Under the pieces are notes generated by a model. That model saw nothing but the letters and a program-made list of their open reading frames with translations. It was not told where the DNA came from and made no database searches. Positions 48,803-54,740 of a stretch of DNA of 64,000 nucleotides are shown one piece after another. Position 1 is the first letter of the stretch. Each line of letters begins with the position of its first letter. The stretch is taken from positions 73,975 to 137,974 of the forward strand of contig CAVWDG010000009.1 of NCBI GenBank assembly GCA_963753695.1. The letters run 5' to 3'. Origin of the DNA: an uncultured Actinomycetes bacterium (GTDB taxonomy: Bacteria > Actinomycetota > Thermoleophilia > UBA2241). Both the position numbers and the translations under genes were made by a program.

Positions 48803-50263
48803 CTACTGGTGTCGCGCGCGACGGATGTCGTCGGGGCCTGCCTGGCAGATGGCGGCCAGGCCGTCGATCTGCTCGTCGCTCAGGCAGGGCTCCTTGGCGG
48901 CATGCGCGGCCAGCAGGCGCTCGACCGTGTCGCAGGCCACGTCGTTCTCGGTGCGGCCCTCTTCGAGCCACTTGTCGTAGGAGAGGCGGTTCGACACGCC
49001 CGGTTGCAGGTGCTCGCCCGCGCGCACGCGGCGCGCCGTGTCTTTCTCGCCGAGAAAGCCGCCCCCCGGACCCACCCGGGCGATGGACTCGGCGGCCAGC
49101 GTGGCGTCGGAGACCTCGACGTCGCCGTAGAGGCGGCGCACCATGGCGGCGATCTCGTCGTCGACGACCGACTGCGGGAGGTACATGGTGTTGTGCGAGT
49201 CGATCAGGCCCCAGCCCGTGACGATGTCGGGGTTGGCGCTGCACACGCCGGCTGCCTTGAGGGCCTTCTCGTAGCCGGTCTGCAGCCCCGCATGCTTGCT
49301 GTCGGTCGACAGCCCGGGACTCAGCGTGGGCACGCCCACGTAGTGGCCGACCTCGGTGGCCATGGCGGCCATGAGGGCGCTCTCGACACAGCCCAGCGAG
49401 AAGGTCGTGCGCAGCATGTCGAGCACGCCGGAGCCAAAGCAGAAGATGAGCCGCGCCCCGGGCGCGGCGACCTGCAGCGCGGTGGCGACGCCCAGGAACT
49501 CGGCGAGCCCCTGCACGACCGAGCCGGCCAGCGTGACCGGCGAGGTGGCCCCGGCGATCGTCATGGAGTAGACCTCGATGGGTATGCCCAGGGCGGCCAG
49601 CGCGACGTGCACGTCGAGCACCGGCCCTTCGACCTGGAGCGGCGAGGCGGCCGTGCAGACCGTCGAGAAGCGCGGCCGCTCGCGGAACGCGTCGAGGCTG
49701 CCCGAGAGCACCTCGCAGATGCGCACGACCGCGTCGACCTCGTTGGGGCAGTCGACGAAGGTCACGTGCTGCGCGGTCTCGGTGAGCATGGTGAAGTACT
49801 CGATGAGCTCGCGGCGCTCGAGCGCGACGTCGGTGGCGCTGACCTGGGTCCACATGAGATCGAGCTGCGGGAGCTCGTCCATGAGCGCCGTGCACTCGCG
49901 CAGGTCCTGCAGCGTGCTGGGGCGGCGCGCGCCCGTGCGAAAGTCGAGCGTCTTGGCGACGCAGCCGCTGGGCGCAAAGCGGAACTGCTGGTCGGCGCCG
50001 ATCAGGGCGTCGTCGGCCGGCGTGGCGCCGGCCATCGTGAAGGAGCGTGGACACTGGGCGATGGCCCACTCGACCAGCTCGCGGGGCAGGCGGACGATGC
50101 CGGTGGCCTCGTCGACCTGGGCGCCGCGCGCGGCCAGCAGGGGCAGCACGCGAGAACCGGCCAGGCGCATGCCCACCGTCGCCAGCAGGTCGATGGCCTG
50201 GTCTGCGATGCGGCTCTTCTCGTGCTCTGAGAGCCACGCGGTCCGTGCCTTCACAAGCCTCAC
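48803..50263 (-). CDS. Non-pyrrolysine MttB-superfamily methyltransferase
   Basis: GATSPVTLAG, PGLSTDSK (Ser at the Pyl-equivalent position), QTGYEK; no internal stop; GTG 50263. Confidence 0.88.
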   Translation of the reverse strand: MRLVKARTAWLSEHEKSRIADQAIDLLATVGMRLAGSRVLPLLAARGAQVDEATGIVRLPRELVEWAIAQCPRSFTMAGATPADDALIGADQQFRFAPSGCVAKTLDFRTGARRPSTLQDLRECTALMDELPQLDLMWTQVSATDVALERRELIEYFTMLTETAQHVTFVDCPNEVDAVVRICEVLSGSLDAFRERPRFSTVCTAASPLQVEGPVLDVHVALAALGIPIEVYSMTIAGATSPVTLAGSVVQGLAEFLGVATALQVAAPGARLIFCFGSGVLDMLRTTFSLGCVESALMAAMATEVGHYVGVPTLSPGLSTDSKHAGLQTGYEKALKAAGVCSANPDIVTGWGLIDSHNTMYLPQSVVDDEIAAMVRRLYGDVEVSDATLAAESIARVGPGGGFLGEKDTARRVRAGEHLQPGVSNRLSYDKWLEEGRTENDVACDTVERLLAAHAAKEPCLSDEQIDGLAAICQAGPDDIRRARHQ

Positions 50264-50382
50264 ACACCTTCCCTCGGGCCGCAGTCCGCGCGCCGGTGCG
50301 CGGGCTTGGCGGCGGCCCGCGCGGCGCGTCCGCAGGGACCGTTCGCAGGGCACGATGTCACCAGCCTCAGGCGGTGTCAACC

Positions 50383-50472
50383 CGAAACGTTTCGTTCCAA
50401 CGACAATCTACAGAAATGCTTGTCTTTGCAATGCAGATACTTGAACTGGCGGTGTGAAAGCGCAAGTATTGT
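50383..50472. promoter_or_regulatory. Divergent control region with palindromes
   Basis: Perfect CGAAACGTTTCG (50383-94); inverted ATACTTG/CAAGTAT pair in an AT-rich stretch. Confidence 0.5.
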
Positions 50473-50509: not shown

Positions 50510-51082
50510 ATGATCAGAGTGGGGCAGGCCCCCTTCGGCACGGTCGCCATGGACGAGCTCGACCGCGGCATCATGCAGCTGCTGCGTCCCAACGCGCGGC
50601 GCTCCTATGCCAGCGTCGCGCGCGCCCTCGGCGTCTCCGAGCCCACGGTGCGCAACCGCGTCGACCGCCTCATCGCCAAGGGCGCCATCTTTCAGCGGGC
50701 GAGCGTCAACCCCGCGGCCATCGGCCTCCCCGTCGATGCCATGGTCGGCATCCGCGTGAACCGCGGGTACTCCAAGGGGGTGGGCGCGCGCCTCGCCGCC
50801 ATGGAGAACGTAGCCTACGTGGGCTACACCACAGGCTCGTTCGACATCCTGATCGAGGCGCACCTGCCCGACAACGAGGGCCTCTACAAGTTCTTGAACG
50901 AGGACCTCGAAGAGATCGAGGGCGTGGCCTACACCGAGACCTGGCACATCCTGCGCACCGACAAGACCAACATCGAGTGGGAGGGCGAGATGGTCGGGCA
51001 CGCCCCCATCGAGGTCGTCGACGACCTCGAAGCGGGCACCGCCGACGCGACGGCCGACGATCTCGAACCGGCCGGCGCCTGA
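50510..51082 (+). CDS. Lrp/AsnC family regulator
   Basis: MDELDRGIMQLLRPNARRSYASVARALGVSEPTVRNRV; TTGSFDILIE. Confidence 0.92.
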   Translation: MIRVGQAPFGTVAMDELDRGIMQLLRPNARRSYASVARALGVSEPTVRNRVDRLIAKGAIFQRASVNPAAIGLPVDAMVGIRVNRGYSKGVGARLAAMENVAYVGYTTGSFDILIEAHLPDNEGLYKFLNEDLEEIEGVAYTETWHILRTDKTNIEWEGEMVGHAPIEVVDDLEAGTADATADDLEPAGA

Positions 51083-51199: not shown

Positions 51200-52618
51200 G
51201 TGACGATCGAAGGACGGGTGCCGACCCGCATGGGCGACGGCACCTTCGTACGCCTGACGCGCAGCGAGATCAAAGCCGATCTCGTGGCCGGGTCAGAGGC
51301 GGCGGCCAAGCGGGCCAAGGTGCCCCCGCTGCACGGACGACGAGCTGGACCACCTGCTCGACATCTACGCCTCGTCGGCGCGCTTCACCGGCGTCGACAT
51401 AGGCGACGAGATCGTGCTCAGCTGCGACGGCACCGGCATGAAGACACACGCCACCCGCATCCAGGACCTGCAGACCTACGAGCAGTGGATGGGCGCCGAC
51501 CTGCTCGAGCTGTGCGTGGGCGACTACTCGCTCAAGGTCGTGCGCACCAACCTCGCCTACGAGGCGCAGTACATGCACGACGCCCAGCTCTGCACGGTGG
51601 CGCCGCTGCAGTACGGCGTGATGCCCAACCTGGGCCTCTACTCCAAGCCCGACGGACCCGTGCGACAACTGGAACGAGCTGCTGCCGCTGGGCCGCATCG
51701 ACGAGGCCCGCGCGTCGCGAAGAAGAGGCCGTCGAGATGGCCGTCGTCGACATGGTCGACCTGGCCGACACGCAGTGACGAGGCCGGCGCCGACGCCATC
51801 GACTGGGACACCACCGGCGCCTCGGGCGACCCCGAGTTCCTGGCCGCGCCTCAAGGCCGACCGCCATCATCCGCGAGAAGTACCCTGACCTTGGCATCCA
51901 GCTCGGCATGGCCGGCGAGTTCGTGCTCGGCATGCACGGCCAGCTCGAGTACGAGGGCGTGCGCCTGGCCGGCCTGTGGCCCAAAGACCAGCTGCTGCTC
52001 GCCCAGAAGGCCGGCGCCACCATGTTCGGACCGGTCGTCAACGTCAACACCGGCAAGACCTGCGCCTGGAACATCGCCCGGGCGATCGCGCTCGTCAAGC
52101 CGTGCATGGACGTGGCCGACGATCCCGGTGCACATGAACGCCGGCATGGGCGTCGGCGGCGTGCCGATGTTCGTGCACCCGCCGGCCGACGCCGTCTGCC
52201 GGGCGGCCAAGTCGTGCGTCGACATCCTGCACGCTCGACGGCTTCTAGGTAGGCTCGGGCGATCCGCACGGCATGCACAGTGCGCACGCGCAGGCGGCGG
52301 GCATGGGCGGAATGCGAGCAGCCGGAGATCTGGTGGCTCGCATGCAGATGACCCGCGGAATGCGTTTGAAAGAGGCCAAAGAGTACGTCGCCGGCAAGCT
52401 CGGCGTGACGCCGTTCGACCTGTCCGACCCCGTCGCCATGACCGACGTGCGCAACGAGTTCGGCTTTGGCCGCATCCACAGCTACGCGATCCGCCAGCCG
52501 CGCGCAGGCCAATCAGATCGAGGCCAAGTTCAACATCGCGCGCGTGCTCGACATGCCCATCAACTGCGTCGAGCGCTTCAAGGAACGTACGACGCCGGTC
52601 GCCGGCGGCGTGCGCTAG
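51200..52618 (+). CDS. mtbB: Dimethylamine:corrinoid methyltransferase MtbB with in-frame amber (putative Pyl); many apparent indels
   Basis: GGGAGGGG SD plus GTG; TRMGDG, PNLGLY..PDGP, LGMAGEFVLGMHG, PVVNVNT, HMNAGMGVGGVPM, LDGF-TAG-VGSGDP..MRAAGDLVARMQ..EAKEYVAGKLG. Confidence 0.88.
52312..52343 (+). promoter_or_regulatory. Candidate PYLIS-like stem-loop 3' of the mtbB amber codon
   Basis: ATGCGAGC-A-GCCGG-AGAT-CTGGT-G-GCTCGCAT, 13 bp including 2 G-U pairs; 63 nt after TAG. Confidence 0.5.
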
Positions 52619-52644
52619 CGAAGGGCACCGATGGGAGGGCGGCG

Positions 52645-54139
52645 ATGATTCGCAATCCACGCGCCGGCGCGCGCAAGAGCGGCGGCTTTCGGCTCGAGGT
52701 GTTCACCGACGACGAGCTGCGCGAGATCCACCTCGCGACGCTCGAGGTGCTCGGCCGCACCGGCGTGTTCGTCGAAGACGACGAGGCGCTCGAGATCTTC
52801 GCCCAGGCGGGCGCCGACATCGACCGCGAGCGTCGCGTCGTCTGCCTGCCGGCCCACCTGGTCGAAGACGCGGTCGACGCCGCGCCCTCCACGGTCGTGC
52901 TCTGCGGGCGCGACCCGGCCAACGATGTGGTCCTAGAAGACGGCCGCGTCGGCTTTACCAACTTCGGCGAGGGCATCCAGGTCGTCGATCCCTACACAGG
53001 CGAGCTGCGCGAGTCGCGCAAGGCCGACGTGGCCGACTGCACGCGCCTGATCGACGCCCTGCCCGAGATCGACGTGGTCGAGCGTCCCCTCGGGGCGCAC
53101 GACGTGCCGCCCGGACACGGCGGCCCTGCACAATGCCGAGGCGATCTTCTCGAACACCACCAAGCACGCCACCATCGGCCCGCTGTCGGGCTTCTGCGCG
53201 GTCAAGATGATCGACATGGCGGCCGCCATCGCGGGGGGCCGCGACAGCTTGCGCAAGCGCCCCATCCTGTCGTTCCTCACCTGTCCGGTGAGCCCCCTCA
53301 AGCTCGTCGCCGACGCCTGTCGCATCATCATCGAAGGGGCCCGGGCCGGAGTGCCGGTCAACGTGCTGTCGATGGCCATGGCCGGCGGCTCGTCGCCGAT
53401 CAACCTGGCCGGCACGCTGGTCACCCACAACGCCGAGGTGCTCGCCGGCATCACGCTGGCCCAGCTCACCGTGCGCGGCGCGCCCGTGATCTACGGCTCG
53501 TCGACCACCGCCATGGACCTGCGCTACGCGAGCGCGTCGGTGGGCAGCCCCGAGTGCGGCATGATCGGCGCCGGAGTCGCCTGCCTGGCGCGCTTCTATC
53601 TGCTGCCCAGCTGGGTCGCCGGTGCGTAGGGCGATGCCAAAGTGGCGGACGCTCAATCCGGTCACGAGAAGACACTCACCAGCCTGCTACCGGCGTTGGC
53701 AGGGGCCAATCTGATCTATGGGCTGGGGATGTTGGAATCGGGCGTCACCATCGACTACGCGCAACTCGTCATGGACGCCGAGTTCGCGCGCATGATCAAA
53801 TTCTGCGTGCCGGGCATCGCGGTCAACGACGCGACCCTGTCGGTCGACGTCATCGCCGAGATCGGCCCGTTCAGCGACTTTCTCTCGCACGACGACACCT
53901 ACCGCGGCATGCGCGGCCAGTCGCGCTCCAAGCTCATCGACCGGCGGGTCCGCGAGGAGTGGGTCGCCGCCGGCTCGACGACGATCTACGAGCGCTCGCG
54001 TGCCGAAGCCTGCCGCCTGCTCGAGACCCACCAGCCGCAGCCCCTGCCCACCGAGGTGGCCGCCGAGCTTGCCGCCATCATCGCGGCGGCCGAACGGGAG
54101 CTCGGGGTGGGGCAGGGCGCAGAAGACCGCGTAGGGTAA
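52645..54139 (+). CDS. mttB: Trimethylamine:corrinoid methyltransferase MttB with in-frame amber (putative Pyl); one apparent indel near 53110
   Basis: [89 protein letters not shown]. Same frame on both sides of TAG; ends at TAA; about 497 codons. Confidence 0.93.
53683..53703 (+). promoter_or_regulatory. Candidate PYLIS-like stem-loop 3' of the mttB amber codon
   Basis: CCTGCTA-CCGGCGT-TGGCAGG, 7 bp stem; starts 54 nt 3' of TAG. Confidence 0.42.
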
Positions 54140-54740
54140 GGCTGAGGGCGATCACGAACAGCGCCACAGACAGGCCGCGCACGAGGTAGGCGATGGTGTC
54201 GGTCGAGCCCAGCAAGCCGAGCTCGCCGAGGATGTTGTGCCAGTCGTGCCCCGCGCCGGAGCCGTCGTCGTTGAACAGCGGCAGGACCATGCGCGTGGCG
54301 TCGTAGACGTACACCGAGACGTTGTTCAGCGACTCGGCCACCCAGGCGAGGGCGACGATCGCGGCAAACGAGTCGCGGCGGTGCGCGAAGTAGGCGCACA
54401 CCGCGAGCGGCAGGGCGACCTGCACGAACGAACCGGCGAACTGCTCCACGATCGTCGGCGCCCAGACGAACACGAGGTGGCCGAACTCGTGCACGCCCAG
54501 GTCGGCCCCCGAGAGAATGGGGATCCAGCCGTTGCGCGTGAAGGTCAGCGCGGCGAGGGCGCAGACCGCCGCCGCGGCGACCAGCCACTGCAGCGTGGCG
54601 CTCCACAGACCGTCGGGTCGAGGCGCGCGCATGCGGTCCGCCAGCGTCCGGTGCGACTCGGCCGCGCGCAGCGCGTCGGCCCAGGCGTCGAGGTCGGGCC
54701 GCGTGGGGGCTTTGCTGCCGCTCTCGCCGATGGTGTCCAT
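54078..54740 (-). CDS. Hypothetical membrane protein with HExxH motif
   Basis: GVHEFGHLVF, several TM segments, GAGHDWHNIL; 3' end overlaps mttB. Confidence 0.72.
   Translation of the reverse strand: MDTIGESGSKAPTRPDLDAWADALRAAESHRTLADRMRAPRPDGLWSATLQWLVAAAAVCALAALTFTRNGWIPILSGADLGVHEFGHLVFVWAPTIVEQFAGSFVQVALPLAVCAYFAHRRDSFAAIVALAWVAESLNNVSVYVYDATRMVLPLFNDDGSGAGHDWHNILGELGLLGSTDTIAYLVRGLSVALFVIALSLTLRGLLRPAPPRAPVRPPR

Follow-up and report, generated by a model that had tools for sequence, protein, structure and literature searches.

Pyrrolysine (Pyl), the 22nd amino acid, is encoded by UAG in methylamine methyltransferases, and the family of the gene considered here is typified by MttB, the trimethylamine:corrinoid methyltransferase of Methanosarcina barkeri, in which Pyl is residue 334. 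In bacteria, the canonical order of the genes that support its use is pylT-pylSc-pylBCD-pylSn. As for Actinobacteria, the available part of the survey by Guo et al. 2022 (PMC9630628) counts pyrrolysyl-tRNA synthetase (PylRS) genes in two of them, and the available text of Ellenbogen et al. 2023 in mSystems (PMC10805028) reports that Actinobacteriota metagenome-assembled genomes (MAGs) from Stordalen Mire, including the genus Bog-752, express Pyl-encoding mttB and mtbB. In that same portion of the article, Pyl genes are recognized by their truncation at the amber codon, the pyl locus and downstream RNA features are given no description, and non-Pyl members of the MttB superfamily are stated to use quaternary amines and not trimethylamine. 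A combined literature query for pyrrolysine and Thermoleophilia gave nothing relevant. The DNA analyzed here, a window of 64,000 nucleotides from contig CAVWDG010000009.1, belongs to an uncultured Thermoleophilia bacterium of the Actinomycetota represented by a 2.13-Mb MAG (16 contigs, 62% complete, 70% G+C). Judging from homology and gene content, the window very probably encodes a genuine pyrrolysine-dependent MttB whose UAG is read as Pyl.

A sequence-only reading of the window had proposed that mttB carries TAG exactly at the pyrrolysine position, and alignment with the M. barkeri enzyme bears this out. The codons at the site are CTG CCC AGC TGG GTC GCC GGT GCG TAG GGC GAT GCC AAA. In a phmmer comparison with PDB chains, residues 7-326 of the C-terminal part (320 aligned) match 7xcm_A and 7xcl_A, both M. 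barkeri MttB, with an E-value of about 1e-92, and the TAG falls opposite the 'X' of 7xcl_A, which is chain residue 334 as counted from the alignment (...LPSYVAGS-X-SDAKVPDDQAGHEK). The motifs flanking the TAG, VAG-x-O-xDAK and Q(A/S)GHEK, are conserved in the same alignment, and position 1 of the Rfam model PYLIS_3 sits on the U of this UAG.

The gene starts at the ATG at 52645, which is preceded by GGGAGGG; its first 156 codons sit in a different frame from the rest, and its product has 497 residues once the TAG is read through and one extra base (53113) is skipped. On the 5' side of the TAG, 192 codons are open from stop to stop, or 140 when counted from the first ATG, and 171 of the 192 are homologous to MttB, reaching back to 53114; on the 3' side, 169 codons are open and end at the TAA at 54137-54139. 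The earlier count of about 140 codons before and 170 after the TAG therefore stands for the local open reading frames, but the gene is also frameshifted further up, near 53113. Readthrough would yield an enzyme of normal length, as had been anticipated, since the joined product is a full-length member of TIGR02369, the NCBIfam equivalog of Pyl-type MttB (727.7 bits over profile positions 1-469 of 469; cut-off 525). Termination at the TAG would instead cost 170 of the 497 residues, the predicted third of the protein, and leave 327. The joined product has 481 of its 497 residues in common with the intact, single-frame orthologue of L004, the closest relative assembled from Illumina data (a co-assembly, 93% identity). 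Over 53114-54137, the two genes differ by 45 synonymous and 11 non-synonymous codon changes; thus, downstream of the frameshift, this synonymous excess indicates that purifying selection still acts on the coding sequence beyond the TAG.

A scan of relatives, taking one genome per species, gave 363 related loci, of which the best 80 were used; these come from MAGs of Thermoleophilia and other Actinomycetota, from Desulfobacterales and their relatives, and from one Spirochaetota. Among these best 80 of 363, all 74 close-type loci that match the site motif have TAG at the Pyl codon (Thermoleophilia, Desulfobacterales and Spirochaetota), and four more distant paralogues have Ala codons at the site. 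Taken with the alignment to Pyl334 and the PYLIS_3 match, the 74 TAG-bearing relatives agree with the initial argument that a TAG at this codon by chance is unlikely. PylS is above the cut-off in 81 of 401 sampled genomes of the class Thermoleophilia. At E <= 1e-30, 74 of 80 genomes sampled from the family to which the window belongs (10 genera) have a match, as do 9 genomes of a second family. The Pyl trait is family-wide in the lineage of the window. It is already published for Actinobacteriota, and the present mttB is an ordinary member of this family-wide trait; the finding confirms the use of UAG for Pyl in methylamine methyltransferases for this soil and peat actinobacterial family and adds one genome with a complete gene set.

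In public databases, the proteins of the closest relatives (91-98% identity) have only 327 residues and end in ...PSWVAGA, being cut at the UAG, and two clusters of such 327-residue proteins hold 120 and 168 member sequences. These entries exist because gene callers truncate at any UAG. Since public protein sets list such fragments, the use of trimethylamine and dimethylamine by Thermoleophilia is under-called in metagenome surveys, which gives the finding a value for annotation. Full-length MttB homologues of 57-64% identity are also present, some of them from Actinomycetes or Thermoleophilia MAGs, and carry Leu (in one case Val) at the Pyl position, with the motif PSWVAGG-L-GDAK otherwise conserved. 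As TAG to TTG is a single base change, the Leu-bearing homologues may be Pyl-to-Leu conversions.

The machinery for Pyl is present in the same genome, on a contig other than that of the window, where the pyl genes lie about 4-9 kb from one another (Table 1). PylRS is split, with pylSn and pylSc as separate genes. Between pylSc and the other pyl genes there are an MtbC-like corrinoid gene, a MarR regulator and a B12/radical-SAM-like gene. Decoding of the TAG as Pyl is strongly supported because the same genome contains pylB, pylC, pylD, tRNA-Pyl, pylSn and pylSc, together with corrinoid proteins, a TAG-bearing mtbB and a second locus. In the pathway that these genes suggest, PylB, PylC and PylD would make Pyl from lysine, the split PylRS (PylSn plus PylSc) would charge tRNA-Pyl (CUA) with it, and the charged tRNA would decode the UAG at 53627-53629, giving a full-length MttB with Pyl at residue 328. 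MttB would then bind trimethylamine and donate a single methyl group to the Co(I) corrinoid carried by its B12-binding partner protein, and the MtbB encoded upstream would act likewise on dimethylamine. The cognate corrinoid proteins would be supplied from beside the second mttB copy and from inside the pyl region.

Table 1. Features of the window (positions in the 64,000-nucleotide stretch) and pyl genes of the same genome (positions in the stretch L003, contig C11:26000-44000)
Feature	Position	Strand	Basis
mttB, pyrrolysine-type trimethylamine:corrinoid methyltransferase	52645..54139	+	TIGR02369, PDB 7xcl/7xcm, L004 orthologue
In-frame TAG of mttB, pyrrolysine codon, residue 328 (Pyl334 of M. 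barkeri MttB)	53627..53629	+	alignment, relatives, Rfam
Rfam PYLIS_3 (RF02510) match	53627..53726	+	72 bits (gathering score 38), model 1-100/100
Hairpin-forming block of mttB, GUUGGC-AGGG-GCCAAU (relatives GUUGGC-AGGN-GCCAAC)	53695..53710	+	codon constraint, pairing
Frameshift site in mttB, CCCGGAC (relatives CCCGAC; one extra G)	53110..53114	+	alignment with L004, L014
mtbB, pyrrolysine-type dimethylamine methyltransferase	51200..52618	+	PYLIS_2, three-frame translation, intact L004 orthologue
Hairpin of mtbB, over MRAAGDLVARM codons, beginning 66 nt after the mtbB UAG	52312-52343	+	covariation
AsnC/Lrp-family regulator, directly upstream of mtbB-mttB	50510..51082	+	Pfam PF13404, PF01037
Non-Pyl MttB superfamily member, divergent	48803..50407	-	PF06253, 237.8 bits; TIGR02369, 323.6 bits, below cut-off 525
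pylSc	L003 8135-9025	+	TIGR02367, 276.6 bits (cut-off 178)
pylSn	L003 12907-13368	-	TIGR03912, 124.8 bits (cut-off 51)
tRNA-Pyl, anticodon CUA	L003 13921-13993	-	ARAGORN
pylD	L003 14050-14940	-	172 bits (cut-off 150)
pylC	L003 14966-16204	-	331.4 bits (cut-off 248)
pylB	L003 16229-17464	-	423.2 bits (cut-off 348)

The gene directly before mttB, mtbB, has its own in-frame TAG at 52246-52248 in the context DGF-TAG-VGSGDP, and the Rfam model PYLIS_2 matches at 52246-52345 with 65.7 bits against a gathering score of 36. Its terminal stop is also TAG (52616-52618), 26 nucleotides before the start of mttB, and its orthologue in L004 is intact in a single frame. The position of the AsnC/Lrp-family regulator upstream of mtbB is conserved, as this region aligns to L004, L014 and L027. 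A second locus, on contig C2, consists of a TetR regulator, mtbB2, mttB2 and then two B12-binding corrinoid proteins; mttB2 is intact in one frame and carries TAG at the same site. Corrinoid partners available in the genome are thus the two B12-binding proteins that follow mttB2 and the MtbC-like protein of the pyl region. Because the genome has the pyl genes, TAG-bearing mtbB and mttB, and this second locus with its corrinoid proteins, its parts list for trimethylamine and dimethylamine demethylation with encoded Pyl is complete, and the corresponding enzyme activity is predicted on this basis. An mtmB gene was not found in this 62%-complete genome; three of 30 relatives (G012, G158 and G203) have a Pyl-type mtmB, which contains a single in-frame TAG, and 10 more have non-Pyl MtmB-family genes.

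The genome, although 2.1 Mb in size and 62% complete, has about 25 MttB-superfamily paralogues, mostly non-Pyl, which suggests a broad use of methylated (quaternary) amines. One non-Pyl paralogue lies in the window, 240 nucleotides upstream of the regulator. Further upstream of the methyltransferase cluster, the window contains at 41786-47605 genes for an electron transfer flavoprotein alpha subunit, an FAD-linked oxidase, an FGGY kinase, a short-chain dehydrogenase and a 3-hydroxyisobutyrate-type dehydrogenase.

Several points weigh against the assignment of a functional, Pyl-dependent MttB to this window. As assembled, mttB is frameshifted, so that the copy could be a real pseudogene, and both the TAG and the extra base near 53113 are known from the assembly consensus alone. 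Insertion of Pyl in this organism is deduced from genes, not from the protein level, and no cognate corrinoid gene adjoins this copy of mttB within the window. Finally, TAG is not depleted as a terminator, so that efficient read-through cannot be assumed. Indeed, stops estimated from about 1,350 open reading frame ends with strong coding signal are TGA in 54%, TAG in 36% and TAA in 10%. Because TAG ends about 36% of the open reading frames, mtbB included, UAG has two meanings here and is not reassigned, a situation shared with other Pyl bacteria, and Pyl insertion would compete with termination. With about one third of its stops still UAG, the lineage lends itself to the question of what separates Pyl insertion from termination.

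The frameshift can be placed in the context of the assembly as a whole. Joining the two mttB frames at the frameshift site restores a stretch of protein identical to that of L004. Relative to L004 and L014 (92% identity), the window has 11 small insertions in 51332-53114, all but one single-base (about ten in mtbB and one in mttB), and no indel in 53115-54399; the local assembly errors are therefore indels, as the sequence-only reading had held, and the nearest one is 513 nucleotides from the TAG. In the second locus, mtbB2 has about 28 single-base insertions or deletions confined to the gene (the patch spans C2:33642-34933), with 2.2 kb upstream and all of mttB2 downstream being clean. Such events are also found in unrelated genes. 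When the window is compared over 64 kb with the syntenic G001 contig, isolated frame-changing indels occur in its other genes, and a crude frame model based on G+C content at third codon positions (GC3) marks about 93 clusters of frame switches genome-wide. Two hot spots that were compared with both relatives (C11:112.8-115.6 kb and C8:35.3-38.5 kb) show about 10-20 single-base indels per kb in unrelated genes. A longest-ORF (open reading frame) test for the broken genome at each indel was uninformative, because spurious ORFs span everything at 70% G+C, and it was replaced by a GC3 phase test and a frame hidden Markov model.

Collectively, unevenly polished consensus in a long-read assembly is the most likely source of the additional base near 53113 and of the ten or so in mtbB, since the events are all 1-2 nucleotides, the substitutions are mostly synonymous, the orthologues are intact, and dense patches, set between clean stretches, occur elsewhere. 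Gene calls from this MAG will consequently contain many false frameshifts. Two other explanations of the indels were considered and dropped. Real gene decay specific to mtbB, suggested by two broken mtbB copies with clean flanks, was abandoned as a lead given the equally dense patches elsewhere and the approximately 93 hot spots; the inserted bases were also considered as sites of quadruplet decoding or programmed frameshifting, an idea set aside because their contexts have no common motif.

The alternative that survives best accepts the TAG as the ancestral Pyl codon and holds that this mttB and the adjacent mtbB are real pseudogenes, the intact C2 locus carrying the function. It would account for the one insertion in mttB and the ten or so in mtbB, all between 51332 and 53114, for the fact that both mtbB copies in the genome are broken while their flanks are clean, and for a non-synonymous share that is somewhat higher in mtbB (26 against 45 synonymous) than in mttB (15 against 67). 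Natural decay, however, is not expected to leave events of 1-2 nucleotides only and no larger deletions, substitutions in both genes are still mostly synonymous, equally dense patches of +/-1 indels affect unrelated genes of the same assembly, and the orthologues are intact in relatives, one of which is a long-read assembly. A pseudogene is on these grounds improbable, and an intact mttB behind a consensus error is preferred. That the TAG is an ordinary stop ending a 327-residue protein, or a base-calling error for a sense codon such as TTG (Leu), is very improbable: the closest relatives are indeed annotated as 327-residue proteins ending in ...PSWVAGA, non-Pyl homologues with 60-64% identity carry Leu or Val at this codon and the assembly is error-prone, but TAG is found in 74 of 74 relatives from independent assemblies, homology and coding constraint run on for 169 codons past it, the genome has a complete pyl machinery, the errors of this assembly are indels, the nearest being hundreds of nucleotides off, and truncated database proteins are the usual output of gene callers at any UAG.

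With the TAG taken as a Pyl codon, the message downstream of it can be examined for RNA signals. The pyrrolysine insertion sequence (PYLIS) was considered as a conserved RNA structure promoting UAG decoding and was rejected. The PYLIS_3 model has few pairs, several of which are non-standard in the mttB match, and the RNAalifold consensus of the PYLIS region from 28 relatives contains 10 pairs only, with a covariation term of -0.35, which is of no use as support. The single-sequence fold of the region is not unusual (z-score -1.67), and the paper behind the Rfam family describes mttB as lacking a significant common structure (PMC3639795). The PYLIS_3 match reflects conservation of the coding sequence and not a supported RNA structure.

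A different block further downstream shows a more specific constraint. Across 72 distinct bacterial mttB genes of the TAG type, synonymous codons are nowhere conserved as strongly as at codons 22-27 after the Pyl codon, GCG TTG GCA GGN GCC AAC, where the fraction of the top codon is 0.92, compared with a gene mean of 0.65 and with 0.77 in the next unrelated block. In the window, these codons are GCG TTG GCA GGG GCC AAT (53693-53710), and they include a 16-nucleotide hairpin-forming block that begins 68 nucleotides after the UAG. The 6-bp stem is kept in 72 of 78 sequences; the fourth base of the loop is the only one that varies freely, and there are a few G.U pairs and one A..U double change. 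TTG and GCA are rare codons for a genome of 70% G+C, and the hairpin cannot form in six non-Pyl homologues, which encode the identical peptide ALAGA(N/S) by different codons. Covariation is uninformative here (65 of 500 shuffles reach the observed score) because the pairs are nearly invariant, and the support for the mttB hairpin is therefore codon-level invariance and not covariation.

A hairpin at a similar distance in mtbB is supported by covariation. Paired cells make up 86.5% of its alignment (slid partners give 30-44%), double changes number 11 and 13 in two of the pairs, and the compensatory changes fall at third positions (in pair 12-33, GC in 17 and AU in 11); none of 500 shuffles reaches the observed score. 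A common hairpin at +68 nucleotides in all three Pyl gene families was considered; the mtmB genes of three relatives, too few to decide, show instead a small palindrome, CAGCTN-AAT-GAGCTG, near +90. Both the mttB and the mtbB hairpins lie at too great a distance from the UAG to be in contact with a ribosome decoding it.

It is a tentative idea, and on balance a doubtful one, that bacterial Pyl-type mttB messages carry a specific selected RNA element in the form of the GUUGGC-AGGN-GCCAAC hairpin. What favors it is the peak in codon constraint across Thermoleophilia, Desulfobacterales and Spirochaetota, the rare codons, free variation limited to one loop base, the absence from non-Pyl homologues and the covarying hairpin at +66 of the unrelated mtbB gene. 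Together, the mttB and mtbB hairpins could amount to a signal, as yet undescribed, that is connected with UAG recoding or with its consequences, and within this locus only the hairpin that follows the UAG might be new. If the idea is right, the hairpin might shield the untranslated downstream message from Rho or nucleases while ribosomes wait at the UAG, and the signal would operate where UAG is still a common stop. Hairpins conserved on the 3' side of the UAG offer a testable way into the question of Pyl insertion versus termination.

Among known systems, one close to the mttB of the window is that of M. barkeri (Pyl334; PDB 7XCL, 7XCM and 7XCN), with which it shares the PF06253 fold family, TIGR02369 membership, the position of the UAG and the motifs VAGx-O-xDAK...Q(A/S)GHEK. 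The host, however, is no methanogen but a high-G+C Actinomycetota bacterium, in which a folate pathway instead of coenzyme M presumably receives the methyl group, and within the window no mttC follows mttB directly. In the stretch after the UAG, the Rfam consensus has GCu cUa GCa GGu gCa AAc, without the GUUGGC/GCCAAC hairpin of the present mttB. Non-Pyl members of the MttB superfamily, such as the glycine betaine methyltransferase MtgB of Desulfitobacterium hafniense (PDB 2QNE), belong to the same superfamily as the mttB described here but have a sense codon at the Pyl position and about 30-39% identity; the paralogue of the window scores 323.6 against the TIGR02369 cut-off of 525.

The Stordalen Mire Actinobacteriota MAGs, e.g. 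Bog-752, represent the same kind of organism with, in the available text of PMC10805028, the same pair of mttB and mtbB. The MAG 'bog_752' is among the relatives compared here, with about 90% protein identity in L027 and about 70% in L066, and has TAG at the same codon. The present genome is a different one, with 92-93% nucleotide identity to the nearest relatives compared. Finally, the genome resembles bacteria with a split PylRS such as D. hafniense, Acetohalobium arabaticum and the Olavius delta-1 symbiont (PMC1976440; survey PMC9630628), in having separate pylSn and pylSc, pylBCD and pylT, and in still using UAG as a stop. It differs from them in its unusual gene order, pylB-pylC-pylD-pylT-(gap)-pylSn on one strand, with pylSc about 4 kb off on the opposite strand.

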